From the NCBI GenBank assembly GCA_032128875.1, contig JAVLKG010000016.1, positions 1 to 64,000 on the forward strand: a stretch of DNA of 64,000 nt, written 5' to 3'. Positions 1 to 20,481 of the stretch are shown piece after piece (the first letter of the stretch is position 1; each line of letters begins with the position of its first letter). The notes beneath the pieces are model-generated. The model ran no database searches and had not been told where the DNA came from. It saw only the letters and a list, made by a program, of their open reading frames with translations. Source of the DNA: Candidatus Melainabacteria bacterium 17Bon1m (GTDB lineage Bacteria; Cyanobacteriota; Vampirovibrionia; Obscuribacterales; Obscuribacteraceae). A program made the position numbers and the translations under genes.

Positions 1-2026
<2,026 letters not shown>

Positions 2027-2448: not shown

Positions 2449-2521
2449 TGGAGGCTAGCGGAGTCGAACCGCTGACCTTCTCCGTGCAAGGGAGACGCTC
2501 TACCAGCTGAGCCAAGCCCCC
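2449..2521 (-). tRNA. tRNA-Ala(TGC)
   Basis: Cloverleaf GGGGGCT..AGCCTCCA with G3:U70, anticodon loop CTTGCAC and T-loop TTCGACT. CCA is not encoded. Confidence 0.97.
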
Positions 2522-3152
2522 AGATTGTTCTTCATCGTGCCGCGGCGATGAGGATAAAGCTTATTCTCAGTACGGGAGCGGCTTCCCTGGTTGTTGAGAA
2601 TAGACAAAAAGATGCGCTCTTCAATTGAGCGTACTTTTCTATCTTACACTACATTCCAACCGATGGGGAAGTGCAAACAATCTCTTAAGTAATTCCGAAA
2701 AGCCGCACTGTGCTGTGGTCCTATAAAAGTGCTTGGACTAGAGCGCCGAAAACATTGAATTTGTGGCGCTTGTTTCCAGAAAAAATTTCCGCAAGAACGG
2801 CATAGCGGCGCAGAAATTCTCCAGTCGTTTGATTCACGATTGGAAACACTTTCATTTGGGCACCAACCATTCGCGTACTCAAACAGGCTTGTGCTGCGGC
2901 TTTCAGTTAACTTATGGGGTGCCCTGTATTCGCGGACTACTTATAAACGATCCATTCTTCTTATAAGAGGAATGGATCTAGGAGGGGAAAGTGGTGCGAA
3001 TTTATGGAATGTATATGCAACGGATGTCATGGGGCGGTGGGCGCTTTCGCATTCCTATATATAAGGATTTGCAGAATCAGCGGAGCGAGCTAGTGCTTTT
3101 GACGATAAATCCATTGGCTGAAAACCCGCATAAAATATGCGGTTGGCGATCT

Positions 3153-5102
3153 TTATAGAGACGTTTCTAAATCCAGAGGAATTCTGAACCAAAAAATACT
3201 GCCGTTATTTGGTTCGCTCTCTGCACCAATCGTTCCGCCGTGTGCAGAGACAATTTCTTTGCAAATGGCCAATCCCAAACCAGAACCTTTTGGTGCATTC
3301 GGACCCTTAACGAATTGCTTGAATCGAGAGAAGAGAGTTTTTTCTGCTCCCTCGGGCAGCCCCGGACCTCTGTCTTGAACGCTGATCTTCAGCGAGTTTT
3401 TGTCTATGTGCGAGCCGACAGTGATTGTTGATCCTTCGGGTGAAAACTTCACTGCATTGGATAGCAAATTGACAAGCACTTGAATCATGCGCTCGCAGTC
3501 CATGTTTACTTCGCGATCTTCTTTGGGAAGTTCTATTTCAATATTCTTCTTCTCCGCTATGCCACGAACCGCTTCGTAAGCGAGAGTCAGGAGACTGGCG
3601 ACGCGTGTCGGCTTGAGTTCGAGTTCCATTTTTCCGGCTTCCAGTTTTTCGAGATCGAGCAAGTCGTCGATCAATCTGTTGAGCCGGTCGATTTCTAGTT
3701 CTACAGCCTGTTTTCGCACGCCGCCTTTTTCACTCAACTGTCCGTATATTGGTGTGTTGAGCATACCCAGAAAGTTTTTCACTGAATTTAGAGGTGTCCG
3801 CAAGTCGTGGCTGACCATGGCCATGAAGTGTTGTTTGAGTTGTTCCAGCTCTTTGCGCTCAGAAATGTCGTGCACCACACAGAAAAGAACTTGATCAACG
3901 GCAGACCATCGCACAGCCCAAACCATGTGCGCATCATGACCTTTCTTGTGTGCAATTCTGCATTCGATTGTGCCGGAATTTTGCTCGTTGCGGATTCTAT
4001 CTAGAAATTCGGTTGTCTTCTGAATGTCCTCAGGTACAATCAGTTCGCTGAAGCGCATGCCGAGAATCTCATCAGGAGCGAATCCCCAGTGATCTAGCAC
4101 GGCTGGATTAGCGGTGACAAAGCGTCCATCAGAGTCGATCGAACAAATAACGTCCGGCGCCGATTCAATAATCGCCTTTTCTTTTCTCTGCGCTTCGGCA
4201 AGAGCTTTTGCCATTTTGTGAAAACCGTTATCGAGCTCGGCGATTTCATCACTGCCTCGCAGTAATGGATTCAAGGACTTTCCTGATGCCAGGCGAATTG
4301 TATTGTCTTTTACAGTGTTGATACGTCGCAAGATGCGTTTGCCGAAAAGCAGTGCCAAAATCAGCGCGATCATTATGTTGATCAGAATTCCCATCATGAG
4401 GAAGAGCTGGTAAAACCTGCGATAACCATGCTCGATGCCGCTTAAGTCTTGCGATTCACGATCGAGTTTGTTGGAGAAATCCGCTACCTGTCTTGATGTA
4501 ATCATCAAGTATTTCATGATGCGCGAACGTTCTTCCCCCAGTTCAATCAAGTAAATGGGGTCCATCACCGAGTTGTCTGGCAATGAAGTGAGTTTTTCAT
4601 ACGTGCGATCGAGCGCTCGGGACAGGTAATTTCCATTGCTCTCTGCGATTTTGACGATTTCTGCTTGTTTTGCGTCGCCCTTAACCAGTTCTTTCAAGCG
4701 ATCCATATGCATTGAAGAGTGGCGTCGATAGTGCATGAATTCCATTCTGGAATTTTGATCTCGACGAAAGCTGAACTCTAAAAGTGACATACTGGCTGCT
4801 GCATAACCATTGAGAACCCGGTCTGCCTCAGCGCGAACGTTGCGCGTGTGTTCGACCTCAATTGTTTTTGCTTCTGCAGTTTTGTAAAACCAGTAAAGAC
4901 CGATGATAAATGTCATTTCGAAGAGCAGCGGCACGCCGACAAGCACCAGTCCCATCTGAAACATCGTAAGGTCGAATTTCAGTTTTTCTTTCTTGCTTGG
5001 CGCAGCATCAGGCACCGGCAGTGGTGCCATGCGGTGAAACGATTTGTCAGCCGCCCGCGTTATTGGTCTTGATTCGGATTCGGCTGGATTCCCGTTTGTC
5101 AT
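3153..5102 (-). CDS. Membrane sensor histidine kinase (2 TM, HAMP, PAS, HisKA, HATPase)
   Basis: H-box SHDLRTPL, N-box NLLSNAVKF, DRGPG, GSGLGL; PAS segment APDVICSIDSDG. Confidence 0.93.
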   Translation of the reverse strand: MTNGNPAESESRPITRAADKSFHRMAPLPVPDAAPSKKEKLKFDLTMFQMGLVLVGVPLLFEMTFIIGLYWFYKTAEAKTIEVEHTRNVRAEADRVLNGYAAASMSLLEFSFRRDQNSRMEFMHYRRHSSMHMDRLKELVKGDAKQAEIVKIAESNGNYLSRALDRTYEKLTSLPDNSVMDPIYLIELGEERSRIMKYLMITSRQVADFSNKLDRESQDLSGIEHGYRRFYQLFLMMGILINIMIALILALLFGKRILRRINTVKDNTIRLASGKSLNPLLRGSDEIAELDNGFHKMAKALAEAQRKEKAIIESAPDVICSIDSDGRFVTANPAVLDHWGFAPDEILGMRFSELIVPEDIQKTTEFLDRIRNEQNSGTIECRIAHKKGHDAHMVWAVRWSAVDQVLFCVVHDISERKELEQLKQHFMAMVSHDLRTPLNSVKNFLGMLNTPIYGQLSEKGGVRKQAVELEIDRLNRLIDDLLDLEKLEAGKMELELKPTRVASLLTLAYEAVRGIAEKKNIEIELPKEDREVNMDCERMIQVLVNLLSNAVKFSPEGSTITVGSHIDKNSLKISVQDRGPGLPEGAEKTLFSRFKQFVKGPNAPKGSGLGLAICKEIVSAHGGTIGAESEPNNGSIFWFRIPLDLETSL

Positions 5103-5215: not shown

Positions 5216-5866
5216 CTAGACCAGACCGTGTCTTAGTGCTTTGACGGCTGCCTGGGTACGGTCCGAGACCGCAAGTTTGTCCATAATGTGCTTGATATGG
5301 GTCTTGACGGTGTCCTTTTTTATCGAAAGGCGGTCACCAATCTCTTGATTGGATAAACCCTCCACAATCAATTGCAAAACCTGCAATTCCCGTTCCGAAA
5401 GCTGTTCGTAGACCACTTCATTGGGCGTGGTCGCACCGCCAGACTTCGGCAATGCCCTCAATACTTTGTGGGCAATTGTCGAATCAATCCACAAATCGCC
5501 GCGCACGACTGCATTAACGGCAGTTTCCAGCCTGCTAAAATCGGCGTCCTTTAGGCAATAACCATTTGCACCGGCGGCCAGCGCCGCGAAGATGTCTCGC
5601 TCATCGTCGTGGGACGTCAGCATAATTACCTTCAGCTCCGGCCACTTTTGCTTAAGCTGCTGGCAGGCCTCGATACCGTCCATGATCGGCATTCCGACGT
5701 CCAACAAAATGACCGCCGGATTGGTCCTTGTCGCCACCTGAATTGCTTCTCTGCCATTAGACGCCTGATGTATCTCAGATACGAGTTCGCTTTGCTCGAA
5801 GAGGACCTTGAGACCTGCTCGCAGGTTGGCATTGTCGTCGACTATAAGGATTGAGTGTTTGGTCAT
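5216..5866 (-). CDS. NarL/LuxR-family response regulator
   Basis: Receiver domain (ILIVDD, LLDVGMP, GYCLKD) plus LuxR HTH (LSERELQVL..GLSNQEI..TVKTHIKHI). Start placed at MTKHS. Confidence 0.93.
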   Translation of the reverse strand: MTKHSILIVDDNANLRAGLKVLFEQSELVSEIHQASNGREAIQVATRTNPAVILLDVGMPIMDGIEACQQLKQKWPELKVIMLTSHDDERDIFAALAAGANGYCLKDADFSRLETAVNAVVRGDLWIDSTIAHKVLRALPKSGGATTPNEVVYEQLSERELQVLQLIVEGLSNQEIGDRLSIKKDTVKTHIKHIMDKLAVSDRTQAAVKALRHGLV

Positions 5867-5965
5867 TGTTGAACACCATTTTCTGTCGTTGTTAGTCTTA
5901 CAGTTTTTTGTTTTCGCGGGGCTTTCTATTTTGCTTATCGGCATAATGCTTATCGGTATTACAAG

Positions 5966-7708
5966 TTATGCGGTTGACTCGACTTCTGTCTTGTAAGGCA
6001 GAGTTGCCGTGAAAGTGGTACCAGTGGCTTCGTCGCTGGTAAAGCTGATGGTTCCTCCCAGTGCGTGAGCGATTTGCTGCGATAAATACAATCCGATGCC
6101 CGTTCCTCCCGCCGATTGCTGTCCAAGTTCGCCTTGCCAGAAAGGCGTGAACAGCTTTTCTTTGTCATTTTCGTGTATGCCTGGTCCACTGTTGTGCACG
6201 TCGATACTGACCTGCTCATCAGATTTTCTGACGGTGATGGTAACGGCAGTTTGTCTGGGTGAAAACTTGATCGCGTTCTCCAGCAGATTGCCGATCAAGT
6301 GTTTCAGCGCTGATTCGTCAGACTTAATAAGAATGCGTTCGTCGGGCTGTTTGAGCACAATTGAAACTTCTGACAATTGGCAGCGAAAATCGAAGCTGGA
6401 TACTATGCCTGAAACCAATTCATTGAGAACGAGCTGATTCTGCGACATGACATGGACGCCCTGGCGATACTTCGAAACCTCGAGCATGTTTTTTACCATC
6501 TTTAGAGCGTCTTCGTTGCTGTCCTGAAGGCGCAGCAGCAGCTCCTGATCACCGTTCTTCGCGTGTTTTTTCATCATTGCCTGAATCAAATAATTCGATG
6601 CAATCAGTGGGCTCTTCAAGTCATGCGCAATAGTTTGCTGGAGGACTTCTTTTTGCCTCGAAAGTATGGTCTTGTCGGACATATCTTCAATCAGCAAAAT
6701 CAAGCTGCGCACTTTTTCTGCCTCCATCATCGGCCAGGCAGCGATATCCCAATAGCGCTCCAGGTCTGTCCTGCTGCCTATCTGCGAGATTGCCACATCT
6801 TTCAGAATGGCCGGCTTGCCGGACGCGACAGTATTCGTCAATTCCTCACGAGGAAGCTCGGGCAACAATTCCCAGAGCGACATTCCATCGAGGTTTTCGG
6901 TATCGACGAGATAGCTGCGAAATACCGGATTGACGTCTTTGATTTTGAAGTCCGCTTCCATCTGGATAATGCCAATGGGCGCGTGTTGCACGATTTCGCG
7001 CGAAACCTGTTGCTCAACCATAAAGGCTTTTTGAGTCGCGCCTATGTATCGTTGAACGATTAAAGCCAGCGGGACTACGAATAGAAGGATGAATCCGCCC
7101 AAGCTGAAAAACATGAGTGACGAACGCTCGGCGTTTTCCTTATAGTCCTCAAGGCGCTCCTTAAGCACCGATCGCTCATCTACGTCGCTGATTATCAGTC
7201 GTCCGCGGATAACTTCCATTAGTTGTTGAGCTTTGCTGAGTCCGGGTTCTGAGGCCTTTAAGTTGCCTCTCTCTTTCTCCTTGATCGAAATATCAAGGCT
7301 GTTCTCGAACCGCTCGGTCAGCTGTTCTATGTACGTGAAGTGCCAGCGCCGCCAGCCTTCTTCGTCACCGGTGTGCTTCACGAAGGTGATGTATTTCTCC
7401 AGACCCTCTTTATCCTTCTTGTAGCGCGTCAGAGCGCCCTTTTCACCTGTACGGATATACGTTTCGGCCTGATTCTTCATGTCGTTCATAATCGAGATGA
7501 TCGATTCGAGACTGCCCAGCAATTCTTGCGATTTCTCGACGCTCTGTCCTGCTTGGATGGCCTTGGACGAGTGCATGTATGACGAAATTGCGGCACCGGC
7601 TACCAGCACAAAGGCAACAATGACAGTGATACTCAAGATCGACTCGGGCGAGCGGAAGAACAGGCGCGTGCCTGTCTGAGGCTTCTTGGTTTTGGTCGAA
7701 TCGAGCAT
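5966..7708 (-). CDS. Sensor histidine kinase (CHASE3-like, PAS, HisKA, HATPase)
   Basis: AHDLKSPL, NLLENAIKF, GTGIGL; two TM helices flank a helical periplasmic domain. Confidence 0.92.
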   Translation of the reverse strand: MLDSTKTKKPQTGTRLFFRSPESILSITVIVAFVLVAGAAISSYMHSSKAIQAGQSVEKSQELLGSLESIISIMNDMKNQAETYIRTGEKGALTRYKKDKEGLEKYITFVKHTGDEEGWRRWHFTYIEQLTERFENSLDISIKEKERGNLKASEPGLSKAQQLMEVIRGRLIISDVDERSVLKERLEDYKENAERSSLMFFSLGGFILLFVVPLALIVQRYIGATQKAFMVEQQVSREIVQHAPIGIIQMEADFKIKDVNPVFRSYLVDTENLDGMSLWELLPELPREELTNTVASGKPAILKDVAISQIGSRTDLERYWDIAAWPMMEAEKVRSLILLIEDMSDKTILSRQKEVLQQTIAHDLKSPLIASNYLIQAMMKKHAKNGDQELLLRLQDSNEDALKMVKNMLEVSKYRQGVHVMSQNQLVLNELVSGIVSSFDFRCQLSEVSIVLKQPDERILIKSDESALKHLIGNLLENAIKFSPRQTAVTITVRKSDEQVSIDVHNSGPGIHENDKEKLFTPFWQGELGQQSAGGTGIGLYLSQQIAHALGGTISFTSDEATGTTFTATLPYKTEVESTA

Positions 7709-7818
7709 TGTCAGAATCCGGTCTGCCTAAGATCTTATTCCGCGTAATAGAGGTATTTTCCCGGATGGTTAATCAAAGACGTCACCCATTCGGGTGCCTC
7801 GACCGCTGTTTCTCCTAA

Positions 7819-9852
7819 TCAAAACCCATAGATGTTAATCTTGCGAGCCTTAGCGACTTCTCTGACTTTGTCGCGTGTCGCTGCGTCGATAGACATGCGC
7901 CCGAGCTGTAAGTCTTTCATGTTTTTCATTTGAAGCGCCCTGAAGATGCCTTTGGGTGTCACTGATGTCCCTGGAATGTGCAGAACACAGAGATCCGGAC
8001 AATTGGTGGCAAGTGTTTCAATACCCCTGTCTGTGATTCGTGGATTGCCGATAAGGTAGAGGAAAAACACGTTTTTTCCAAAACTCTTAAGTCCTTCATC
8101 GGTAATATCAGTATTCGACAAATCGAAACCCCAGCGCGCTTTATGTCTTGCCAGTATTCGAGCAGAGTTGTCACTAATCAACACGTTATCTGCCAGAGTT
8201 AATTCTCTGAGTTTTGGAAGTCCATCGACAATTACTTTCAATGCCTCATCGCTTACAGGAAGAGCGCGAAGATCGAGCGATTCCAATTTTTTCAATCGAA
8301 TTAGAGGTAGAAGCGCTTTTTGAGACACATTGCCGCACCTTCCCAAGCCCAGACTGCGAAGCTTATCCCCATATTTTGCAATCGCCTCGACACAGGAGTC
8401 GTCCAATTCAGAGTCGTAAAAGTCTAAATACTCAATATTTCCACTTAAGATAGTTTTGATCCCTTGCGGTGTAAAGCGCGAACATTCTCGCAGCGTCAGC
8501 TTTTTCAGCCATTTTGTGCTGGCGAGCAGATCGAATTGACTCTGTGAAAATTCGCATACCGGTATCGATGCGTGCTCCCATCCGCGGCTGCGTGACTCAG
8601 TGAGCGCCTTTTTCACCTTTTGATCGTATGAAGCTTGTTCGATTTCAGGTGTTGAAAGTCTGCCGTCTAGTATTTCTATCGGTTTGACATTTTGCAATTT
8701 CGACTGCGGTGTGATTTGCATAACCACATATGCAGCTAGAACGAGAACAGCCAGGGTTATAAGGGCAATAATGGTTTGCGTGCGGCCCAATGCGGATCTA
8801 ATGGTGGTCAGCAAATGCTTGCATTTCACACTCAATGATTCTTTGGTTTGCACATTTCCACTGAGTGCATTTTTTTCTTCTGATTCTCTCTTGAACTTGT
8901 CCTTGATGTCTGTGAGAGCCGAATAAACAGAACTCATAGAATCAACTCGCTCTTCGACATTTTTCGCCATCATCGAGTCGACGAGTTCTTGTAAACGCGT
9001 GGGAAACTCTCGTCCCATGGAGGCTTCGCGCAGAGACTTCGGCTTCTCGGTTTGATGCAGCATCAATGTTTCAATAATCGTGTCACCCTGAAAAGGGGGC
9101 ACGCCGCAAAGGCATTCAAACATGACGCAACCAAGCGAATATATGTCTGTGCGTGCATCCATTTTCTTTCCGATGCTTTGCTCCGGGCTCATGTATAGCG
9201 GGCTTCCAATGACCATTCCGGTCTTAGTCAACTCTTGCGTCTGCGCACTATTAGATGTGATTTTTGCGATTCCGAAGTCCAGAATTCGAATCGAACCTGG
9301 TCCGATTTTTTCCTCCTGAAGTAAGACGATATTGCTGGGCTTTATGTCTCGATGGAGAACGCCCTTTCCATGCGCATGGGCAAGGGCATCTGCGCACTGA
9401 ATGAAAATATCTAAGACTTGATCAAGGCTTAACTGCCCTTGCTCAGCTAGGACATCGTGAAGCGTCTTCCCGGGCACAAAATCCATGACCATGTAAGGTG
9501 TGCCGCCGTCCGTGACGCCAAAATCGTGGACCGACACGATGTTTGGGTGGTTGAGTGCGCCTGCTGCTTTTGCCTCAGTTTGAAAACGCTGCACTGCATC
9601 ATCGTTCATTGAGCCTTGATTAAGGGTTTTAATCGCCAAATCTTTGCCGATAAAAACTTGCGAACAACGGTAGACTACGCCCATTCCACCGACGCCGATG
9701 CGGTTTTGAATATTGTACTTTCCGAGAAACAGATTGCCGGGCGAAAAGAGATCAGCCTCTATAGCCTTTTCTCCTCCCGATTGATGCCCGCCGGTCGAGC
9801 CGCCCACACGCAGTGTGGCGTCCTCGGCATTGCCGGTTTGAAAGTCTTCCAT
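7819..9852 (-). CDS. Hanks-type Ser/Thr protein kinase with TM helix and C-terminal leucine-rich repeats
   Basis: GVGGMG, AIK, HRDIKPSN, DFG, GSPLYMSPEQ; hydrophobic IIALITLAVLVLAAYVV; LxxLxL repeats. Start placed at MEDFQ. Confidence 0.93.
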   Translation of the reverse strand: MEDFQTGNAEDATLRVGGSTGGHQSGGEKAIEADLFSPGNLFLGKYNIQNRIGVGGMGVVYRCSQVFIGKDLAIKTLNQGSMNDDAVQRFQTEAKAAGALNHPNIVSVHDFGVTDGGTPYMVMDFVPGKTLHDVLAEQGQLSLDQVLDIFIQCADALAHAHGKGVLHRDIKPSNIVLLQEEKIGPGSIRILDFGIAKITSNSAQTQELTKTGMVIGSPLYMSPEQSIGKKMDARTDIYSLGCVMFECLCGVPPFQGDTIIETLMLHQTEKPKSLREASMGREFPTRLQELVDSMMAKNVEERVDSMSSVYSALTDIKDKFKRESEEKNALSGNVQTKESLSVKCKHLLTTIRSALGRTQTIIALITLAVLVLAAYVVMQITPQSKLQNVKPIEILDGRLSTPEIEQASYDQKVKKALTESRSRGWEHASIPVCEFSQSQFDLLASTKWLKKLTLRECSRFTPQGIKTILSGNIEYLDFYDSELDDSCVEAIAKYGDKLRSLGLGRCGNVSQKALLPLIRLKKLESLDLRALPVSDEALKVIVDGLPKLRELTLADNVLISDNSARILARHKARWGFDLSNTDITDEGLKSFGKNVFFLYLIGNPRITDRGIETLATNCPDLCVLHIPGTSVTPKGIFRALQMKNMKDLQLGRMSIDAATRDKVREVAKARKINIYGF

Positions 9853-9891
9853 AGGTGCTCTACCCACACAGTAATTCATAGCCCTAAAAGC

Positions 9892-9922
9892 ACTCTATCA
9901 ACGAGTTGTTGTCGACTTGTTA
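9892..9922 (-). promoter_or_regulatory. 11-bp direct-repeat (TAAC-N7-CAACAA) activator site plus -10 box TAGAGT
   Basis: Minus strand TAACAAGTCGACAACAA-ctcgttga-TAGAGT upstream of the kinase-LRR gene; same geometry as five other sites. Confidence 0.6.
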
Positions 9923-10150
9923 AATGGCACCAAGACGCCCAACTGGCTTGAAAACTTTGTTGTCTAACTAGTAAATCGCCGACGTTGGCAGGCTCGTTTT
10001 ACGGGCAATTGTTTAACAAGGTACAAAATCTGCTGCGCTAGACTGATATCTGATCTATGAGTTGCCTTTCTTGTCGGAAACCATGTCGCGCAAAGACCAC
10101 GAAATCCATACCGGCCAAAAGAGAATCATAAACAAAGGCATGAAAAGGGC

Positions 10151-11161
10151 ATGAGGAAAGGCCGTTTCAATCTCGCCGAAACCGGTTTTATCCTGGTGGC
10201 AATTCCGCTCGTCTTTCAGCTTGTTTTGTCGTTTCCACTTTCAGATACGCTGTCGAAGATTGAAAGGCAAACTCTGGCTCGCCTGCGTTCAACGAGAATA
10301 ATATCTGCCGCCAGCCAAGTTAGTCTTGAGTTCTACAGCATCGCCGCAATGCTGACGCTTTTTCGATTTACTAGAGATCCCGCAATTGCTGATAGTTATC
10401 GCGCCTCAAGACGTGCTGCTAAAGAGACTGGCGAGTATTTGATTTTGCTTACTAGCGACCGCCCTGAGCAGAAAGAGCGCGCGGAGAAAGTCAACAAGCT
10501 CGGGGACGAGGCGGCGGCTATAGTCAGCGGATTTGAGCACTCGATGGAGATGGGCATGTCCGCTGTTATTGAAGCATCAAGATTTCGACATCAAGTAAAC
10601 CGAATTTTCGTTCCGATGATCAATGAGTTGGATGCACTTGTAAAAGAAGAGCGTCTGCGTTTGACAGGTGAGCAACCGGATTTTGATCGTCTCTTCAGAG
10701 TGATTGCCATCGGATTTGGTGCTAATTTGCTTCTCTCCGGTTTTCTGGCGCTGTTTTTCTTCAGAACAATCATTTCGAGAATCGAGCGGCTTAAGTACAA
10801 CCTCAAGCGTTGCGCGCAGAGGGAAAAGCTGGCGCCGATGCTCGAAGGGCGCGATGAATTCGTTCGACTCGATGAAGCGTTCCATCGAATGGACGACCAG
10901 TTAACTGACATTGAGAATCGCAAACGGGAGTTTGTGGCGACGATCAATCATGATTTGCGAACTCCTTTGACCACCTTACAATACGTTGTCGCTCTGGCAC
11001 TCAAAGGCTCTTATGGAGAGTTCAGCGAAGAGGAGCGAGCGATTCTGGCCAAACAAGAGGAAAAAATTGTCGAACTTGTAGACTACATCAACCAATTTCT
11101 TGCAGCCGAGAAGAAAAAGTCCGAAACCGCGATTAGCACCGACACTGAGGCTAGTCACTAA
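10151..11161 (+). CDS. Membrane sensor with HAMP and HisKA (DHp) but no HATPase domain
   Basis: 2 TM, HAMP, intact H-box INHDLRTPL; the protein ends ~70 aa later with no N/G boxes. Confidence 0.85.
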   Translation: MRKGRFNLAETGFILVAIPLVFQLVLSFPLSDTLSKIERQTLARLRSTRIISAASQVSLEFYSIAAMLTLFRFTRDPAIADSYRASRRAAKETGEYLILLTSDRPEQKERAEKVNKLGDEAAAIVSGFEHSMEMGMSAVIEASRFRHQVNRIFVPMINELDALVKEERLRLTGEQPDFDRLFRVIAIGFGANLLLSGFLALFFFRTIISRIERLKYNLKRCAQREKLAPMLEGRDEFVRLDEAFHRMDDQLTDIENRKREFVATINHDLRTPLTTLQYVVALALKGSYGEFSEEERAILAKQEEKIVELVDYINQFLAAEKKKSETAISTDTEASH

Positions 11162-11163
11162 CT

Positions 11164-12636
11164 ATGCGTTTTTCTCTCGCGGCGAAAGGAATTGTGCTGA
11201 TTGCTCTGCCGATTTTGATCGAGTTGATTGCACTTTCTCTTTTGTGGCATTTTGTCATGGATGCAGACGCTGAGGCAAAAAAACAGTCAAACGCCAGAGA
11301 TATAGCTGCGGAAACGAGCCACATCTTGCTTCAATTTTTCCAACTCGGCTCTCAGATTTTGCTCTACAAGGCAGAAGGACCTGCTGGCGAACGCAGAGTT
11401 TACGTAGAGTTGAAAGAATCAATGAAGCAATCCACATCGAGATTGACTTCACTTGCAATCGATTTACCAGAGCCAGAGAAGATCAGGGTCAAACAAATTG
11501 AGACGCGCATCGATCGAGCAGTTGCTTTAGTAGGCGGTTACATCACGGAAATGACCAGTCCTACTCATATCCTTGGGGCTTTCGATGTTGCAGGCTTTAG
11601 AAAACAGTTGATGGATCAGGTTCTTCCGCTGGAAAGAGACGCCAAGCATTTTACTGACTTGAGTAAAAACAATGAGCTTTATGGACAATGGACGGAGAAG
11701 GCTTCTAACGAGCGGCACCTCTTATTGATCGGTTCTCTTGTTCTGCCAAACATTTTAATTGCCATTGCACTTGCGTCATTTTATTCGAAGAGCGTCCGCA
11801 GTCGAATTCGCAGAATCGATTCCAATGTTAATCGTTTTTTGGAGGGGCGTATGCTCGATCGAAGTATGCCTTCCGAGGATGAAATATCAGATGTGGACGA
11901 GGCTTTTCATCAAATGAGCGCAAAGCTAATCGCCGCCGATCTAGAGATGCAAGACTATTACGATTCGATGCAGCGCAATTTGGCTGAGCCTTTGCGTGAG
12001 CTTCGTTCGGTTTTGATTGCTTCTTCTGAGAGCGCCAGTCCTCTGACGGAAACTGGCAGAGCAAAAGTGCTCAAGAGCGTCGCAACTACCGACCGTTTGA
12101 TTTTGCTTATCAAAGAACTTGGAAAGATTGAGGAGATTTCCACTGCAAACGCGCAAGATGCCTCACCGGTGAAAGTGGAGCTCGCTGCATGTCAGATTGA
12201 GGATATTCTTTCTTCTTCAATTGCTTCTGTCGCAGAAATTGCCGCGAAGAAAGAGATCTCGCTCTCCTCTGATTGTGCGAAAAGCTTGATGGTGCAAGCC
12301 GACTCTGCAAAGCTTGTGCAAGTCATCGTCAATTTACTTTCCAACGCAATCAAGTTTTCACCGAAGGGAAGCGCGATCGAAGTGATTGTGGTCAAGACTG
12401 ACAAGAACATCGAAATACACGTCAAAGATCAGGGACCAGGTATTGCATTGAATGAGCAAACTCGATTGTTCAAACGCTTTGAACAAATCGAATCAATCAA
12501 ATCGAGCGACATTAAGGGAAGCGGACTCGGCCTCGCTATCTGTCACGACATCGTCAGTGCACATGGTGGCGAAATAAGTGTCACTAGCGAACCCGGAAAA
12601 GGCAGCGACTTCTGGTTGCGCCTGCCTTTCTCGTAG
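11164..12636 (+). CDS. Membrane histidine-kinase-like protein with intact HATPase but no phospho-acceptor His
   Basis: 2 TM, HAMP; H-box position reads MQRNLAEPL; intact NLLSNAIKF, DQGPG, LFKRF, GSGLGL. Confidence 0.88.
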   Translation: MRFSLAAKGIVLIALPILIELIALSLLWHFVMDADAEAKKQSNARDIAAETSHILLQFFQLGSQILLYKAEGPAGERRVYVELKESMKQSTSRLTSLAIDLPEPEKIRVKQIETRIDRAVALVGGYITEMTSPTHILGAFDVAGFRKQLMDQVLPLERDAKHFTDLSKNNELYGQWTEKASNERHLLLIGSLVLPNILIAIALASFYSKSVRSRIRRIDSNVNRFLEGRMLDRSMPSEDEISDVDEAFHQMSAKLIAADLEMQDYYDSMQRNLAEPLRELRSVLIASSESASPLTETGRAKVLKSVATTDRLILLIKELGKIEEISTANAQDASPVKVELAACQIEDILSSSIASVAEIAAKKEISLSSDCAKSLMVQADSAKLVQVIVNLLSNAIKFSPKGSAIEVIVVKTDKNIEIHVKDQGPGIALNEQTRLFKRFEQIESIKSSDIKGSGLGLAICHDIVSAHGGEISVTSEPGKGSDFWLRLPFS

Positions 12637-12658
12637 GGGCGACGCCATCATCGCCTAC
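12633..12658 (+). repeat. REP-like palindrome (GTAGGGGCG... family)
   Basis: GTAGGGGCGACGCCATCATCGCCTAC, overlapping the stop codon; related copies occur elsewhere. Confidence 0.65.
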
Positions 12659-12809
12659 TATTCCCTGCCGGGAATGCTTTATGGAAGCTTGCCAGCTACG
12701 AGCGCGGGCGGAAATTAAAAGGATGCCCTCTTTGCCCGTTCGGGCGTAATTTGGCCCTGTTTGAATAATTGCCGCATCCAATGCGATAATTAATGAAGAG
12801 GTAAGAAAA

Positions 12810-13112
12810 ATGAGTACAGCGCTGAAGAAACCAATGCCGGAAGGCCGGCCGGAACGTGAGAAAACGGAGACCGAAAAAATTGTGGAGCTTGAGAGCGCGA
12901 CCGAGACAATGGCTGCATATATCGGCTATCTTAATACTCAGATCGTGAATGAAGAGAATCAAGAGACGCCAAATCTGGAGAAGCTGAAAGCGCTAGAAAC
13001 GCAGATAAATCAGGTTCTAAAGGAGCGGCGAGAAATGAGACCAGACAATTACGAGCTGATTGCTAAAGCTCGCTACATTTATGGTCCCATCATGAAGGCG
13101 CTCTACGCTTGA
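12810..13112 (+). CDS. Small helical protein, putative antitoxin of the downstream zeta-like kinase
   Basis: 100 aa, RBS GAGG, 3 bp upstream of the zeta-like gene. Function inferred from position only. Confidence 0.65.
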   Translation: MSTALKKPMPEGRPEREKTETEKIVELESATETMAAYIGYLNTQIVNEENQETPNLEKLKALETQINQVLKERREMRPDNYELIAKARYIYGPIMKALYA

Positions 13113-13115
13113 AGC

Positions 13116-14138
13116 ATGGACAGACACTTTAAGCTCGACGCCAATAAGCACGAGCAGATTTATCGAAAAATAGAATCTCGCCTGTTCCAAGAGACCCGAT
13201 CTTCACTGTATCCGCGCGCGGTGATTATGGGTGGTCAGCCAGGTTCAGGCAAAAGTAAATTACTTGAAGCGAGCAGAGAAGAGTTTCCCGACGGCAATGT
13301 TGTGGTGATCAATGGCGATGAGTTGCGCGAATACCACCCGCAGTCGAACGAGATATTTAAGCTTGATGACAAACGCTATGCGGAGCGAACAGATGCCGAC
13401 AGCCGTGTTTGGACAAAGCGCGTGTTTGATAAGGCAATTGAGACCAGGCGAAATATCATCTTCGAAAGCACTATGCGAGAAGCTGAACCAATATCCGAAA
13501 CAATGAAACGCTTAAGGGATGAGGGATACGAGTTAACCGCCAAGGTTGTAGCGACTCATGAGCGCATTAGTAAGACCAGTATTTACATGCGCTACGAGGA
13601 GCAGAAGCACGATAAAGGCTACGGTCGTTTCACGTCACAAGAAAGCCATGATGCCGGCTACGTAGGTATGCCGAAGACGGTTGACCATATCGACAAGAAC
13701 AAATTGGTTGACCGACTGGAGGTCTATAATCGCTCTGGGGATGTACTTTTTTCTAAAACCTTAAAAGATGGACAGTGGGATCGCGATGAATACGCCGCAA
13801 AGCTTGTCGAGACCGAGAGACATAGGGAGCCAACAGATAAGGAAATTGCTGATTTGCGGACGGATTGGCACCGAATTCTTGAGCATATGGAAGAGCGCAA
13901 TGCACCGCTGAAAGAGCTGGAGCAAGCTCGCTCTGTGCGTCTGGGAATTGAACGAGATTTGGCTAAACGGCGCGATGCGGAGAAGCCGAGAGAACTGCTT
14001 AAGCCGAAGTTAAAAGCAGAAGACGTGTTCAAGCGCAAGAATGCAGACAAGAAAGAAGAGAAAGCAGAGAAAGCAGAAAAAACGGAAAAAACAGAGAAAA
14101 CCGAGCAACGTGATCGGAATGAAGAGCGAGAGCGCTGA
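13116..14138 (+). CDS. Zeta toxin family P-loop kinase
   Basis: Walker A GGQPGSGKS, INGDELREYHP, IIFESTMR, RYEEQ..GYGR, typical of zeta/PezT-like kinases; charged low-complexity tail. Confidence 0.85.
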   Translation: MDRHFKLDANKHEQIYRKIESRLFQETRSSLYPRAVIMGGQPGSGKSKLLEASREEFPDGNVVVINGDELREYHPQSNEIFKLDDKRYAERTDADSRVWTKRVFDKAIETRRNIIFESTMREAEPISETMKRLRDEGYELTAKVVATHERISKTSIYMRYEEQKHDKGYGRFTSQESHDAGYVGMPKTVDHIDKNKLVDRLEVYNRSGDVLFSKTLKDGQWDRDEYAAKLVETERHREPTDKEIADLRTDWHRILEHMEERNAPLKELEQARSVRLGIERDLAKRRDAEKPRELLKPKLKAEDVFKRKNADKKEEKAEKAEKTEKTEKTEQRDRNEERER

Positions 14139-14208: not shown

Positions 14209-14240
14209 CCCGAAGCCGGCGAGCCGCCGGCGCTCCCAGG
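14209..14240 (+). repeat. REP-like element (second family)
   Basis: CCCGAAGCCGGCGAGCCGCCGGCGCTCCCAGG; exact reverse complement at 32087-32118. Confidence 0.8.
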
Positions 14241-14347
14241 CGCTACCAGGTGCTCCCAGGTGCTCCCAGGTGCTCCCAGGTGCTCCCAGGTGCTCCCAGG
14301 TGCTCCCAGGTGCTCCCAGGTGCTCCCAAGTGCTCCCAAGTGCTACC
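14231..14347. repeat. 10-bp tandem repeat (TGCTCCCAGG), ~11.5 copies
   Basis: Directly visible perfect and near-perfect decamer array. Confidence 0.97.
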
Positions 14348-14560: not shown

Positions 14561-15457
14561 CTAATCGTCGGTTGCTCTGAAAACAAACTTACAGTCAGGT
14601 TTCGCTTTTCGCAATTGATCCAACTTTTTGGCGGAAACATGCGTATGCGAGAGAGTAACCTTTTCCAGGTGTTTAAGCTGCAGAAGCTTATCTATATATT
14701 TGTCAGTGATATTGGTTTTCGCCAGCCTGAGCTTTTTCAGGTTTTTCAATTTCTGTATTTTTAGAATTGAATCATCGGTGATATAAGTTGCCGCGAGGTT
14801 CAATCTCTCTAGATTTGGGCAACATTCGACAATGGTATTTACAGCGAAGTCATGAACTCTAGTACCTGCTAAATCCAGCATAATCAGATGCTTGAGTTCT
14901 TTGAGTTTGTTGAGCGTCGTTCCTCTCACTAATGTTGATGAAAGGTCGAGCTGCTGCAAGTTTTTCAAATCTGCTACGTACTGAAAAAGAGAATCGTTGA
15001 CGTCAGAATAGCTGAGATCTAAGTGGGTAAGCCCGCTCATTTTTGAAACAGTTTTGAAATTGCTTGTCGAGATTGGGACATCATGCAGTCGCAAGTGTTG
15101 CAGGTCTTGCGGCTTGAGTTTTGACAAAGCATCGAAATAGCGCATGCCTTCTGGTGTTGGTACGAGATAAAGCGCGTCACCGTCTTTGAGAGAAACGTTT
15201 CCCTTTGATGTTCCGAGCATTCGCAGAGGCGTTTCGTTATTAAGCGGATGCGTCATCGCTGTGCCGATTGGTACGGGCGTTGGCGGAAACACGACTGTTC
15301 TGTCCGCACGCGCAGGTGCTGCGAACGAAAGAACGCAGAAGACTGCTGTCAACGTGGATGGTCTTTCGATTGCTTTTGCCAAAACCTTTAGGAGGCTTTT
15401 CGTGAAAGCTATTGTGTTGGCTTTTTTAGCGCTCATCATGTTTTTTCTAGCGCTCAT
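14561..15457 (-). CDS. Exported leucine-rich repeat protein
   Basis: Signal-like VFCVLSFAAPARA; repeated LxxLxxLDLSxTxV/ITD units; overlaps the HK stop codon by 4 bp. Confidence 0.85.
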   Translation of the reverse strand: MSARKNMMSAKKANTIAFTKSLLKVLAKAIERPSTLTAVFCVLSFAAPARADRTVVFPPTPVPIGTAMTHPLNNETPLRMLGTSKGNVSLKDGDALYLVPTPEGMRYFDALSKLKPQDLQHLRLHDVPISTSNFKTVSKMSGLTHLDLSYSDVNDSLFQYVADLKNLQQLDLSSTLVRGTTLNKLKELKHLIMLDLAGTRVHDFAVNTIVECCPNLERLNLAATYITDDSILKIQKLKNLKKLRLAKTNITDKYIDKLLQLKHLEKVTLSHTHVSAKKLDQLRKAKPDCKFVFRATDD

Positions 15458-17274
15458 CGTGCCTTTTCCGCTTCGCGCAGGTCTTCTGTTTCCATCGGCA
15501 CTGTAAACCAGAATACCGTGCCACCGCCGTCGTTGTCTCGCACACCTATTTGCCCTTCGTGCGCTTCAACGACTTGTTTGGCGATGGGCAAGCCGAGCCC
15601 AGTGCCCTTGTGCTTATGTGCTTCCGATTCGACCTGCTTGAAGCGCTCGAACACATGCGATTTGTAGTCATCGGGTATGCCCGGTCCTTGATCGGTAATC
15701 TCCACCAGCACGTAATTGTTCTTTTGCCGGGTGATGATTTTGATGGTTCCGCCATTCGGGGAAAATTTGACTGCGTTCGAGAGGATGTTGACCATTGCTT
15801 GTGTCAGCCGGTCTGCGTCCACATTTACAGCGAAATCTGTGCCTTCCACATTGGTTGCTAAATGTTTTTCTTCAATAAGTGATTCGATTGAAACAATTGA
15901 GCTGTAAGCAATTTCTTGAATCGAATGGCTTTGCAGGTTGAGTGTGAATTGCCCTGATTCGTACTTGTCATAGTCGAGAAGGTCGTTGATAAGCCGCAAC
16001 AGGCGATCTGCAGAACCTTCAGCACCGCGCACTCTTTTCACCGCGTTGTCGCTGAGCTTGCCCATGACGCCGAGAGCGAGCGATTCCAGCACCGCGCGAA
16101 TAGAGGCGATGGGGGAGCGCAAGTCATGCGCGACCGTGTCCATGAGTTTTTGCTTGATTCTTTCGAATTCTCTTTCGCGCGTAACATCTCGCACAACGCA
16201 GAAAAGCGCCCGCTCGCTCGTCGACCAGAAGCTTGAAATGACGACGTCTATTATTCGGCCATCTTTGCGAACCACGCGCGCATCAAATGCACCTTGTGAC
16301 TTCGCTTTGATGTGTTCTTCCGCTTGCCTGGTTGTTTTCGCCGCTGATTCTTTTTCCAAGATTTGCACGAGCCGTAAGCCTGTTACTTCCTCAGGCACAT
16401 AACCCCATACTCTTTCGCATGAGGCAGAAACGCGTAACAGCACTAGGTGTTCATCTAAAGAGCAAAGTACATCCGCCGCGTTATCCAGAAGAGCAAGTTG
16501 TTTGCTGTTTGCTTCTGCCAGCGCTTCTGCCATGCCGTGAAATGTCGTATCCAACTGGGCAACTTCATCGTCGCCCTTTAACGGCACGTTTAGCGGCTTT
16601 CCAGATCCCAACAGTAATGCGTTGTGAGTTACTACTGAAATTCTGCCTGCTATATAGGTAGAGAAAACGTATCCCAATCCTGCTGCAATACAGATGTTGA
16701 CGATGATGCCGGCGATCATCGTTGTGACTACCCACTCCCGAGACTTGTCTGCGGTGGCGTTTTTCTGAAGATCTATCGCGTAGTCATTTAGTAGTCGGTA
16801 GTTTTCCACCAGTGTATTCATATAAGTGAACGCTTGCTTGTGGAAAATTCGCGGGTCTAAGTTTCCCCCGTAGTGTGTGCTAGCACCGCTTCTAATCTCG
16901 CTGAGAAAGCGTCTTGCCTTCTTGCTGTCTTCAATAGCGTTAGAGACGAGATATTGTTTTTTCTCGTCATTTCTCAGAAGTTCTTTCAAATCACCTTCTG
17001 ACTTTTGGATAGTCGCAAGAGATTTATCCAGACGTTCTCCGGCTTCCTCGCTGCGTTTTGAGTGCCATGTTCTAGCTTGCATGGCGGCGTTGAATGACTC
17101 CGCCTGCAGATTTGCGACGACTGCTGCAAGTTTTGCCCCCAGTATCTGCGCTTTCAAATCGCGTTCTGCATCCTGTAAAGCGTTTATCAAAAACCAAAAG
17201 AAAACCAAGCTGAACAGCACCGGCACCGTCACGATGATGATTCCCAACCGGCGCAGCGACAGTCCTTTGATCAT
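15454..17274 (-). CDS. Sensor histidine kinase (2 TM, HAMP, PAS, HisKA, HATPase)
   Basis: AHDLRSPI, NILSNAVKF, DQGPG, GTGLGL. Confidence 0.93.
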   Translation of the reverse strand: MIKGLSLRRLGIIIVTVPVLFSLVFFWFLINALQDAERDLKAQILGAKLAAVVANLQAESFNAAMQARTWHSKRSEEAGERLDKSLATIQKSEGDLKELLRNDEKKQYLVSNAIEDSKKARRFLSEIRSGASTHYGGNLDPRIFHKQAFTYMNTLVENYRLLNDYAIDLQKNATADKSREWVVTTMIAGIIVNICIAAGLGYVFSTYIAGRISVVTHNALLLGSGKPLNVPLKGDDEVAQLDTTFHGMAEALAEANSKQLALLDNAADVLCSLDEHLVLLRVSASCERVWGYVPEEVTGLRLVQILEKESAAKTTRQAEEHIKAKSQGAFDARVVRKDGRIIDVVISSFWSTSERALFCVVRDVTREREFERIKQKLMDTVAHDLRSPIASIRAVLESLALGVMGKLSDNAVKRVRGAEGSADRLLRLINDLLDYDKYESGQFTLNLQSHSIQEIAYSSIVSIESLIEEKHLATNVEGTDFAVNVDADRLTQAMVNILSNAVKFSPNGGTIKIITRQKNNYVLVEITDQGPGIPDDYKSHVFERFKQVESEAHKHKGTGLGLPIAKQVVEAHEGQIGVRDNDGGGTVFWFTVPMETEDLREAEKAR

Positions 17275-17276
17275 GT

Positions 17277-17948
17277 TTATTCGTCTACTTTATAGCCACG
17301 ACCGACGATGTTGGTAATCGGCGAAGGGCTGCCTGGAACGTCGATTTTTTGACGAAGCCTTGTTATGCATTTGCGGACAGCATCAACAGAAGAATCCGAA
17401 TCACAAGACCACAGGCGATCGAGGAGTTCGTCAACGCTAAATACTCTTCCTTTGTTTCGAATCAAGTGTTCTAGTAATGCAAACTCTTTCGGATGTAGCG
17501 ATATTTCTTTACCGCGCCGGAAGCATTTAAACTCGCTGACTTGCAAAGTCAAATCGCCTGCTGTCAAGGTTTCACCCTTGTATTCTGACGGACGCCGCAG
17601 CAACGCTTTTACTCTTGATTTCAGCTCAATAAGATTAAATGGCTTTGTTAAATAGTCATCCGCACCGCCGTCAAGCCCGGTCACTTTGCTGTCGATGCCG
17701 CTGTTTGCCGTGAGCATGATGACCGGCGTCGATTTCCCTGCATCCCGCATCTTCTTTAGGACATCGATTCCTTCCATCGAGGGTAGATTCCAGTCAAGGA
17801 TAACTAGGTCGTATTCAAGAGTCTCCAGCCTGTCCCAGCCGTCCGCGCCGTCCGCCACGCTCTCGACAGTGAAGTGCTCCTGCTGCAGCATGTCGACCAC
17901 GCTTTGAGCAATTAGTACATCATCTTCGACCAGTAATATCTTCGCCAT
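17277..17948 (-). CDS. OmpR/PhoB-family response regulator
   Basis: ILLVEDD, ILDWNLP, GADDYLTKPF, winged helix (LHPKEFALL..RLRQKI..GRGY). Start placed at MAKIL. Confidence 0.95.
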   Translation of the reverse strand: MAKILLVEDDVLIAQSVVDMLQQEHFTVESVADGADGWDRLETLEYDLVILDWNLPSMEGIDVLKKMRDAGKSTPVIMLTANSGIDSKVTGLDGGADDYLTKPFNLIELKSRVKALLRRPSEYKGETLTAGDLTLQVSEFKCFRRGKEISLHPKEFALLEHLIRNKGRVFSVDELLDRLWSCDSDSSVDAVRKCITRLRQKIDVPGSPSPITNIVGRGYKVDE

Positions 17949-18001
17949 GGGGGCACTATAGCAGCCTTCAAGCAATTCGCAAATGGCAAATTCGTCGCAT
18001 T

Positions 18002-19407: not shown

Positions 19408-20481
19408 ATGCCAGCAGACTCACTACAGGGCAAAGCCGAAGCATCGCTGTCTTTTACAGAAGAACAGAAAAAGGATGCGTCTGAAAAACTTCTACTGGAC
19501 AGCCCTCAAATTAGCCTCAAGCCCTCCGGCACTCGTGACTCTGGCACTCCAGCTCAGTCGGACACCCTGAAGGGCGTCTTACCAGAAATGACAATCGAAA
19601 ACACCGAGGCAGCGCAAAACGATGCATCGGACCTTAGAGATCAGAAGAAGGCTGAGATAGAGCAAAAATACGGTGTCCTCTTTGAGACGAAGGATACCTG
19701 CCCTCCGCAGGATCGCGACAAACTTAGAGAGCCGACCTTGGCAGAACTAGAAATCGTGGAATGGGCTCTGTCAAAGAATCAAGCTGCTGTCAAACCAAAT
19801 GTGTTCTCAATAAATAGAATGACCATCATGTTTTCGACTGACACCGCAGGAGCATCTGCTTTTCATTCATCTGAGAGCGGCGTGTTTGGAAATTCTCGTG
19901 TCGTAATCAACAACACAGAGAAAGTTTTGACCAAAGAAGATACAAAGAATGGGCAGAGTTTGGGCAGCGTATTGCTCCATGAATTCGGGCACCGCGCCAG
20001 CTTTATGAAAGAGCCTGATATAGAAGGACTCGGTTGGCGAAAGATTGGAGAGAAAGATGTAGCGATCGAAACCAAAGATGGAAGCCTCTACAAATACGTT
20101 GAAGAAAAGAGTGCAGATGGTAAAGATAAAAAGATCTATTGGAGCAAAATCGATAAAGATGGCAACTCGTTGGAAGACCAACCGCAAGGGCGCTTGACGG
20201 ACGAGCAGATGCTTCACTTGGAGAAGGTTTCACAACCCATGCGTCCGGCAAACCATCCAAGTGAAACCTTTGCAAATGCAATGAGAATGTACTGTCAGAA
20301 CAAAGAAACCCGCGAGGAGCTGAAGAGTAAGTGTCCTGATATGTACCGCTACATCGACGAATACGATCGCAAAGAACTTCGTCGCCTTGGAAGCGATTTC
20401 TTTGGCATTAGCAATTATGTACGCGACGAGAATGGCGACATAGTTCGCAATCCGCAAGCATGGAACCCGGCACTTGCCTAG
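19408..20481 (+). CDS. Putative zinc metallopeptidase (HExxH; lethal-factor-like zincin pattern)
   Basis: LLHEFGH plus downstream PSETFANAMRMY...LKSKCPDMYRYID. Confidence 0.7.
   Translation: MPADSLQGKAEASLSFTEEQKKDASEKLLLDSPQISLKPSGTRDSGTPAQSDTLKGVLPEMTIENTEAAQNDASDLRDQKKAEIEQKYGVLFETKDTCPPQDRDKLREPTLAELEIVEWALSKNQAAVKPNVFSINRMTIMFSTDTAGASAFHSSESGVFGNSRVVINNTEKVLTKEDTKNGQSLGSVLLHEFGHRASFMKEPDIEGLGWRKIGEKDVAIETKDGSLYKYVEEKSADGKDKKIYWSKIDKDGNSLEDQPQGRLTDEQMLHLEKVSQPMRPANHPSETFANAMRMYCQNKETREELKSKCPDMYRYIDEYDRKELRRLGSDFFGISNYVRDENGDIVRNPQAWNPALA

Follow-up and report, generated by a model that had tools for sequence, protein, structure and literature searches.

Two adjacent genes in a 64,000-nucleotide stretch of DNA from Candidatus Melainabacteria bacterium 17Bon1m (contig JAVLKG010000016.1, positions 1 to 64,000; hereafter the window) probably specify a single membrane sensor kinase with two unlike subunits, in which the catalytic and ATP-binding (CA) domain of the second protein would phosphorylate His267 of the first in trans. 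From the open reading frame (ORF) map and Pfam, gene 1 (10151–11161, forward strand, 336 aa) is a sensor subunit without a CA domain, and gene 2 (11164–12636, forward strand, 490 aa) is an ATP-binding sensor subunit without an acceptor His. Set against the criteria for a class I HisKA kinase, the His of the dimerization and histidine phosphotransfer (DHp) domain is present only in gene 1 and the CA domain only in gene 2, and neither chain is complete.

The two subunits

Gene 1 is laid out as a first transmembrane helix (TM1), an extracytoplasmic CHASE3-like domain, a second transmembrane helix (TM2), a HAMP-like stretch, a DHp domain of the HisKA family and a 14-residue tail. A hydropathy scan placed its hydrophobic segments at about residues 6–34 and 181–205, with ~150 residues between them. 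The DHp domain (10907–11116, forward strand, residues ~253–322 from the Pfam HisKA match and alignment) is matched by HisKA at residues 258–323 (E = 2e-10) and has an intact H-box, INHDLRTPL, with His267 (codon 10949–10951) in the motif H-D-L-R-T (H267-D-L-R-T271). No HATPase family matched gene 1 in Pfam at E ≤ 1, and the chain stops 14 residues past the DHp domain. The CHASE3 match (PF05227) scored 22.3 bits, under the gathering cut-off of 28, and a match at E ≤ 1 was returned for all 15 gene 1 family members scanned (best E = 2e-6). In a family that is 53% identical overall, residues T274, L276, Q277, Y278, A281, L282 and A283 after the His are invariant; this stretch of DHp helix 1 is what we take, from work on kinase-regulator specificity, to be the regulator-docking face of HisKA kinases. 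Gene 1 also carries the H-E/D-x-x-N/T phosphatase motif (as named in PMC3591291).

Gene 2 has the same order of parts, with TM1, an extracytoplasmic domain, TM2, a HAMP-like stretch, a degenerate DHp and a CA domain, and its hydrophobic segments lie at about residues 1–34 and 184–208, again with ~150 residues between them. The degenerate DHp-like hairpin (11935–12153, forward strand, residues ~258–330) aligns to the DHp of HK853, and HisKA was not matched at E ≤ 1 in Pfam. The stretch that faces the H-box of gene 1 reads MQRNLAEPL, with Arg271 (codon 11974–11976) in place of the acceptor His, and along DHp helix 1 only the hydrophobic core (L273, P276, L277, L280 and L284) is invariant. The CA domain (12166–12633, forward strand; Pfam HATPase_c at residues 380–489, E = 5e-30) has its N box (N390, N394), G1 box (D422, G424, G426), F box (F436, F439) and G2 box (G452, G454, G456) in place, and these residues are invariant throughout the gene 2 clade and its canonical paralogues. 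CHASE3 was not matched in gene 2 and was matched in only 6 of the 21 rows of alignment A2. The closest solved relative is HK853 (2c2a/3dge, 133 bits); DivL (4q20) and RetS (6dk7) are also among the solved relatives. For both genes, NCBIfam returned partial and far sub-threshold matches to many sensor kinases only.

The two proteins are collinear paralogues (26% identity across 311 residues, E = 5e-20), and from TM2 to the H-box they align without a gap at a constant offset of 4 residues, a register that fits a parallel heterodimer. An earlier note on this DNA, made from its letters alone, had described two genes 2 bp apart, the first with an intact H-box and no HATPase and the second with every ATP-binding box and a replaced H-box His, and in all of this the present analysis agrees with it. 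The note had also given each protein a sensor with two transmembrane helices and a HAMP domain; the two hydrophobic segments per protein stand, and the HAMP label is without Pfam support in these two proteins. Pfam HAMP (PF00672) had no match at E ≤ 1 in gene 1, in gene 2 or in any of the 15 gene 1 family members, and weak matches were seen in 8 of the 21 rows of alignment A2 (best E = 0.003) and in module 1 of three of the fused kinases described below (L007, L008 and L011). Only position and homology thus make the stretch of 45–50 residues from TM2 to the DHp HAMP-like.

Conservation, synteny and selection

In a word-indexed search (E ≤ 0.001), gene 1 returned 16 proteins, namely 14 close relatives and 2 distant canonical kinases. 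The 14 close relatives (53–94% identity, 336–364 aa, one of them a 270-aa fragment) all have HisKA only, as do three further proteins at 40–41% identity (P0137 at 40%, P0283 and P0284; 343 aa), so that the CA domain is absent in 17 of 17 database relatives (40–94% identity) and the stop of gene 1 is not a recent nonsense mutation. We also ran an exhaustive HMMER profile search of 1.84 billion representatives with the gene 1 family, in which scores fell from 650 bits (P0005) and 380 bits (P0137) to at most 220 bits; because of this drop, we conclude that the library holds no full-length or fused close relative of gene 1. The family (22 sequences, 21 distinct) ends 14–27 poorly conserved residues past DHp helix 2, and 21 of the 22 sequences keep the acceptor His. 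A HATPase remnant behind gene 1, another way in which the earlier note thought its reading might fail, was rejected, since gene 2 begins 2 nt past the stop and leaves no room for one.

The 15 closest relatives of gene 2 (42–99% identity, 474–492 aa) match PF02518 only, and from P0032 down (≤31% identity, full length) the hits are almost all canonical HisKA plus HATPase kinases. The 16 members of the clade carry Thr (6), Arg (4), Lys (3) or Asn (3), and never His, at the His column, where 41 of 44 canonical paralogues have His. By the criteria for a pseudo-histidine kinase of the DivL kind, the His is thus replaced in 16 of 16 members and the ATP-binding boxes are invariant. HisKA was matched at E ≤ 1 in 9 of the 21 rows of alignment A2, and since 5 of these 9 are canonical paralogues, at most 4 of the 16 clade members match HisKA even weakly. 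We considered a shifted acceptor His in gene 2 and rejected it: no DHp His is conserved in the clade, a His at +1 occurs only in P0020 and P0021, and the invariant His residues (H135, H249, H419 and H467) all lie outside the DHp.

The two genes are adjacent and on the same strand in four other assemblies (L001, L002, L003 and L005), so both defects are conserved in synteny. The closest genome is the metagenome-assembled genome (MAG) Candidatus Melainabacteria bacterium BJP_IG3402_49_16 (L001; 91% protein identity in gene 1), the loci of the other relatives belong to Obscuribacterales or Obscuribacteraceae MAGs, and the locus of L004 is cut by a contig end. L004 and L005 are two contigs of one MAG (JBGAVL01), each with a gene 1 relative behind a Ser/Thr kinase gene with leucine-rich repeats (LRR), which may be two copies or two strains in the bin. 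For metagenome proteins, adjacency was deduced from matching contig statistics: P0004/P0020 (5377 bp), P0006/P0027 (11835 bp), P0009/P0023 (2676 bp), P0010/P0024 (16435 bp, the contig of L005) and P0137/P0031 (5334 bp; 6 members and 2 contigs for either protein). In the 75-row tree described below, the gene 1 and gene 2 clades both resolve the close relatives of the window, and both resolve a second group, P0008 with P0011 for gene 1 and P0021 with P0026 for gene 2; the link between these two couples runs through L003 only, whose gene 2 is identical to P0026 and whose gene 1 was judged by eye, from its N-terminus, to be of the P0008 kind.

The junction of the pair (11159–11166, forward strand) consists of the TAA stop (11159–11161), the dinucleotide CT and the ATG of gene 2 at 11164, a translationally coupled arrangement. 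The spacing of stop, 2 nt and ATG is the same in 5 of 5 loci (the window, L001, L002, L003 and L005), and TGAGG stands 13 nt upstream of the gene 2 ATG in 4 of the 5.

Both genes are under purifying selection. Between the window and L001, dN/dS was 0.093 for gene 1 (DHp: 0.076; tail: 0.36) and 0.087 for gene 2 (degenerate DHp: 0.118; CA: 0.146); against L002 it was 0.112 for gene 2 and 0.117 for its degenerate DHp, and dS was saturated for more distant loci. The losses are reciprocal, free of frameshifts, conserved and under purifying selection, and therefore do not represent random decay, as the earlier note had argued from their reciprocity and the lack of frameshifts. Chance is no issue, because the split features recur in independent genomes. 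By these comparisons, the truncation of gene 1 and the His loss of gene 2 are both old.

Fused double sensor kinases

We scanned the 146 representatives newly returned by the HMMER search with gene 1 (P0005, P0035, P0058 and P0080 are outside the 146), and 61 of them are double sensor kinases (724–1298 aa, among P0138–P0282), each with two DHp regions. All eight double kinases that were inspected have four hydrophobic segments. By Pfam, the double kinases carry two HATPase domains and one or two HisKA domains, some with PAS in each module, and none has a receiver domain. We scored every module by the residue at the His column and by eight catalytic residues (two N-box Asn, D-G-G of G1 and G-G-G of G2).

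Reciprocal loss was found in 42 of the 61. The most frequent state is a His-less module 1 with an intact CA followed by a module 2 with its His and a degenerate CA (31 proteins), and in 5 more the CA of such a module 2 is absent. The opposite order, with the His kept in module 1 and a His-less module 2 with an intact CA, occurs with no CA in module 1 (3 proteins) or with a degenerate one (3 proteins). Both modules are intact in 16 double kinases and only a CA is lost in 3. In the reciprocal proteins the CA of the His-keeping module is degenerate or absent in 42 of 42, the pattern to be expected if every CA acts on the His of its partner module. If phosphorylation stayed within a module, a dead module should stand beside a live one, and modules without both His and CA were seen in 0 of 61. 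The proposal that each reaction pairs the CA of one subunit with the His of its partner, made in the earlier note for the gene pair, thus gains strong comparative support from these relatives.

To explain the reciprocal state, the tree of the 61 proteins requires about 10 changes, at least 7 of which are forced by well-supported branches, and both module orders are found beside relatives with both modules intact. With seven origins and the CA loss always in the other module, the probability is about 0.5^7 = 0.008, assuming an even chance for each module. A conservative sign test on independent pairs gave 4–6 concordant, 0 discordant and 1–3 uninformative pairs.

Five loci of named Obscuribacterales MAGs hold such fusions, all of them uninterrupted forward-strand ORFs of 975–1111 aa (L007: 5901–8918; L008: 5574–8909; L009: 5823–8822; L010: 5904–8831; L011: 1465–4578). 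In module 1 the His column holds T, S, S, S and E, and the CA boxes are intact. Module 2 carries the H-box INHDLRTPLT, and in its CA the first Asn of the N box is replaced by I, L or A and the first Gly of the G2 box by L, V or I. A regulator, of the OmpR type, stands beside the fused kinase in L011 only (among the nearest 22 of the 44 flanking ORFs of L007–L011, which were scanned). Over its full length gene 2 is 29–30% identical to module 1 of several reciprocal fusions, and gene 1 is 25–28% identical to module 2 of the same fusions. In P0167, P0196 and P0246 the order of modules is that of gene 1 followed by gene 2; a protein atlas search with P0167 returned generic histidine-kinase clusters only, with no useful taxonomy.

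Phylogeny of the modules

Trees were reconstructed with IQ-TREE (quick tree, 75 rows) and FastTree (214 module rows), with the fragment P0003 omitted; both have weak backbones and long branches. In the FastTree tree the His-less first modules of eight fusions (P0168, P0174, P0175, P0215, P0225, P0227, P0228 and P0262) form the sister group of the gene 2 clade (local support 97), and the gene 1 clade lies among canonical single kinases, beside P0140 (support 88). A recent tandem duplication of one gene was rejected as the origin of the pair: within the limits of these weak backbones, the two clades are not sisters in either tree, and a simple tandem duplication followed by reciprocal decay is therefore not the history of the pair. 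Tentatively, the His-less, catalytically active module seems to have gained different His-bearing partners.

The same family includes single kinases whose acceptor His is replaced by R (P0134), G (P0048) or S (P0070), and these may have partners of their own; P0134 has HATPase only in precomputed Pfam annotation and sits on a very long branch. Another conserved lineage with degenerate ATP boxes seems to be present in 12 loci (L030–L034, L041, L042, L044, L045 and L049–L051; ORFs at about 7150–8780), whose kinases of 515–534 aa keep the His and have strongly degenerate N, G1 and G2 boxes. Their record names are Parvibaculaceae, Parvibaculum, Rhodobiaceae, Alphaproteobacteria or Pseudomonadota.

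Genomic neighborhood

The presumed promoter of the pair lies in the intergenic region 9880–10150, between gene 1 and a divergent Ser/Thr kinase gene with LRR (7819–9879, reverse strand). We found no sigma-70 consensus in 9880–10150, and a promoter and terminator scan of 9700–13200 gave no excess over shuffled sequences (5 promoter-like sites vs. 3.2 expected; 3 terminator-like sites vs. 3.9 expected). No RNA family was found by Rfam in or near the gene pair. About 90 nt adjoining the start of the Ser/Thr kinase gene (9880–9970) are near-identical in L001 and largely kept in L002, despite a gene 1 protein in L002 that is only 73% identical to that of the window, and this conserved noncoding stretch may be a leader or a regulatory element.

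The signaling neighborhood of the pair is conserved in the loci of relatives. Upstream, beyond the Ser/Thr kinase gene and likewise divergent from the pair, are a CHASE3-PAS kinase of 580 aa (5966–7708, reverse strand), a LuxR-type regulator (5216–5944) and a HAMP-PAS kinase (3153–5102); downstream and convergent are an LRR protein (14561–15457), a PAS kinase (15454–17274) and an OmpR-type regulator (17277–17975). The kinase at 5966–7708 has Asn for the Asp of the G1 box, a change common to L001, L002 and L005, and HisKA matches it with 22.7 bits, short of the Pfam cut-off of 26.9. Between gene 2 and the LRR gene, a 100-aa ORF is followed by a 340-aa ORF with a Zeta_toxin domain (12810–14138; Pfam E = 3e-49), and together they look like an inserted toxin-antitoxin-like module. 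The corresponding gap in L001 is ~500 bp with no ORF of at least 150 aa in our scan, and in L002 it holds an unannotated 350-aa ORF instead. At 14232–14344 a 10-bp unit (GCTCCCAGGT) is repeated 11.3 times and makes spurious repeat ORFs on both strands; at the matching place in L001 (about 10560–10700) there is a different short tandem repeat.

Farther away, the window begins with a 23S rRNA gene that is present for its 5′ two thirds (1–2026, reverse strand), before which tRNA-Ala(TGC) stands alone (2448–2522, reverse strand); the next gene upstream of the tRNA gene is a kinase and not a 16S rRNA gene, and the rRNA genes may be unlinked. The 357-aa ORF at 19408–20481 (forward strand) has a marginal ATLF match (residues 283–318, E = 1.9e-6, 28.2 bits vs. 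a cut-off of 27.4), which we take as a metalloprotease-like motif.

Proposed mechanism and alternatives

The coupled message would yield both subunits in equal amounts, and these would pair 1:1 and in parallel over their whole length, through the sensor, the transmembrane helices, the HAMP-like stretch and the DHp four-helix bundle. Gene 2 would supply the sole CA domain, having neither an acceptor His nor a conserved docking face, and gene 1 would supply the sole acceptor, His267, together with the conserved docking face on DHp helix 1. The CA of gene 2 would then phosphorylate His267 of gene 1 in trans, and phosphorylated gene 1 would hand the phosphate to a response regulator encoded outside the operon, which it may also dephosphorylate. 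Gene 1 thus looks like the acceptor, donor and phosphatase part and gene 2 like the ATP-binding part. We infer that the two proteins bind each other, in what stoichiometry, in which direction phosphate moves and what the pair puts out, taking the 1:1 pairing from the fusions and the translational coupling, and the direction from the reciprocal pattern of loss. Since the catalytic boxes of gene 2 are intact, a substrate His is needed. The comparative evidence supports much of the earlier note's reading: with the split conserved and recurring in fused relatives, the two proteins very probably function only together. It is speculative that the pair acts as a two-input AND gate, as the earlier note suggested; two divergent sensor halves could equally make one composite ligand site.

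Several observations weigh against this mechanism. The fused proteins are homologues of the two subunits at 21–32% identity and not the same proteins, and the independent-pairs test reached a median P of only 0.06 (range: 0.03–0.125). One of the 21 distinct gene 1 sequences, P0012 from a contig of 1128 bp, has Arg at the His position, and 2 of the 16 gene 2 clade members (P0020 and P0021) have a His at +1. The gene 1 and gene 2 clades do not group as sisters in the trees. No response regulator is encoded in the operon of the gene pair, and each of the two nearby regulators has a kinase of its own. HK853, the closest solved relative, autophosphorylates in cis.

Among other readings, one has the subunits meeting as a dimer of dimers, with a gene 1 homodimer as acceptor and phosphatase that is phosphorylated from outside by a gene 2 homodimer. 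Split kinases act in this way in Rhodobacter sphaeroides (CheA4 on CheA3), the domains of EnvZ are separable in vitro, its isolated CA acting on its isolated DHp (PMC3591291), and both proteins of the pair have a complete DHp-like hairpin under purifying selection, so that each could homodimerize. We nevertheless regard this arrangement as unlikely: the fused double kinases bind their modules 1:1 within one chain, and the coupled junction, which favors equal amounts, and the identical register from TM2 to the H-box point the same way, although all three are still compatible with higher assemblies. It is likewise improbable that the two proteins have separate jobs with no phosphate passing between them, gene 1 being a phosphatase or phosphotransfer hub for the regulators of neighboring kinases and gene 2 a pseudokinase scaffold or regulator resembling DivL or RetS. 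The ATP boxes of gene 2, invariant down to 42% identity, are hard to explain for a mere scaffold, the two genes strictly co-occur and are coupled, and in the fusions His loss is paired with CA loss in the other module in 42 of 42 cases and never in the same module. What speaks for separate jobs is that the 8 kb around the pair hold two regulators and three complete kinases, that two of the solved relatives, DivL (4q20) and RetS (6dk7), are His-less kinases acting by binding, DivL with CckA and RetS with GacS (PMC12189002), and that 3.66% of HisKA proteins in SMART have no HATPase domain (PMC3591291). The invariance of the ATP boxes argues that gene 2 keeps catalysis, unlike the picture for DivL.

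Each gene does lack a part that defines its family, as decaying pseudogenes or an assembly artefact would, and to that explanation we give next to no credence. The ORFs are intact, dN/dS is about 0.09, and four other assemblies share the architecture, as do 17 (gene 1) and 15 (gene 2) protein clusters. Weighing all of these together, we favor two unlike subunits of one kinase with phosphorylation in trans.

Relation to known systems and significance

Histidine kinases are textbook homodimers, whose symmetry and direction of phosphorylation (cis or trans) were worked out with engineered mutants. In the complementation of EnvZ and NtrB mutants, His-less and ATP-binding-defective subunits are reportedly active jointly, which is the classical argument that autophosphorylation occurs in trans; the subunits there are mutants engineered from one protein, whereas the pair consists of natural, conserved paralogues. 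TodS-type double kinases have two transmitter modules in one polypeptide; TodS itself is soluble, with a receiver between the modules and an internal phosphorelay, and the fusions differ in having two sensor modules with two transmembrane helices each and no receiver. FasB and FasC of group A Streptococcus come from a different kinase family, and the gene of their regulator, FasA, accompanies theirs. Rv0600c (HK1) and Rv0601c (HK2) of Mycobacterium tuberculosis represent a single kinase gene divided into two consecutive parts rather than two full sensors, and their regulator is adjacent; as Shrivastava et al. reportedly found, the ATP-binding part lies in HK1 and the His in HK2.

Divided labor between two kinase-like proteins is thus already known as a concept. 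CheA3 and CheA4 of R. sphaeroides do not autophosphorylate alone, and the acceptor part is also a phosphatase (PMC3591291); Hik36 and Hik43 of Synechocystis are a split CheA (PMC7656254). Like the pair, both systems have the acceptor and the catalytic domain on two proteins that must meet. The CheA splits are soluble, have the His on an HPt (P1) domain and represent one string of domains cut in two, whereas the pair consists of complete HisKA-type sensors with two transmembrane helices, each with its own DHp hairpin, which are paralogues with reciprocal losses. By the definition of a split kinase in Amin et al. 2013 (PMC3591291), the pair has, by domain content, the two activities on separate proteins and the H-E/D-x-x-N/T motif in the acceptor, a motif by which that paper marks possible split bifunctional kinases; in SMART, 1.7% of HisKA proteins lack HATPase and also carry the phosphatase motif. 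The same paper cites the reconstitution of EnvZ from two separate domains.

Adjacent sensor-kinase-like genes also encode FasB and FasC, which in two-hybrid assays interact with each other and not with themselves; FasC can do without its kinase domain and needs its His246, and the authors propose that the CA of FasB phosphorylates the His of FasC (PMC12675982). FasB and FasC keep all their domains and divide their labor functionally, whereas in the pair the division lies in domain loss and is known from sequence alone. Rv0600c, Rv0601c and TcrA comprise two kinase genes and one regulator (PMC3544749). In DivL with CckA and RetS with GacS, a kinase fold without a working acceptor His acts through contact (PMC12189002); the partners of DivL and RetS are complete kinases that are being modulated, whereas both proteins of the pair are incomplete, with full conservation of the catalytic boxes in the one that lacks the His. 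For a Caulobacter hybrid kinase without the His, a heterodimer is only suggested (PMC11481889). Our literature search on split, heterodimeric, tandem and double histidine kinases, which covered few subscription journals, returned split CheA kinases, FasB/FasC, RetS/GacS and DivL and no reciprocally degenerate pairs or fusions of membrane sensors, and a search for "Obscuribacter" with "histidine kinase" returned nothing relevant. What appears to be new here is the reciprocal loss in two full HisKA membrane sensors, conserved to 40% identity and recurring in fused form.

The fused double kinases with reciprocal loss are a finding in their own right, and the whole should be of solid interest to the field of two-component signaling. 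The fusions offer naturally paired sequences for co-variation analysis, and annotators are cautioned against treating the HisKA-only and His-less kinase genes of these genomes as pseudogenes. A natural half-and-half pair would make a clean system in which to study the direction of phosphorylation, the asymmetry of signaling in the HAMP-like stretch and the DHp, and how two sensor halves are combined. The chances seem to us about even that the pair represents, in two-gene form, a large and undescribed class of "frozen-asymmetry" kinases in Obscuribacterales (Melainabacteria), obligate and heterodimer-like, built of unlike modules, fused or coupled, with two transmembrane helices each, of which one has repeatedly lost the His and the other the ATP site. 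If this is true, nature would have repeated the His-minus/ATP-minus complementation at least seven times; phosphorylation in the class would run strictly across subunits, and the extracytoplasmic part would be a composite of two sensor halves.

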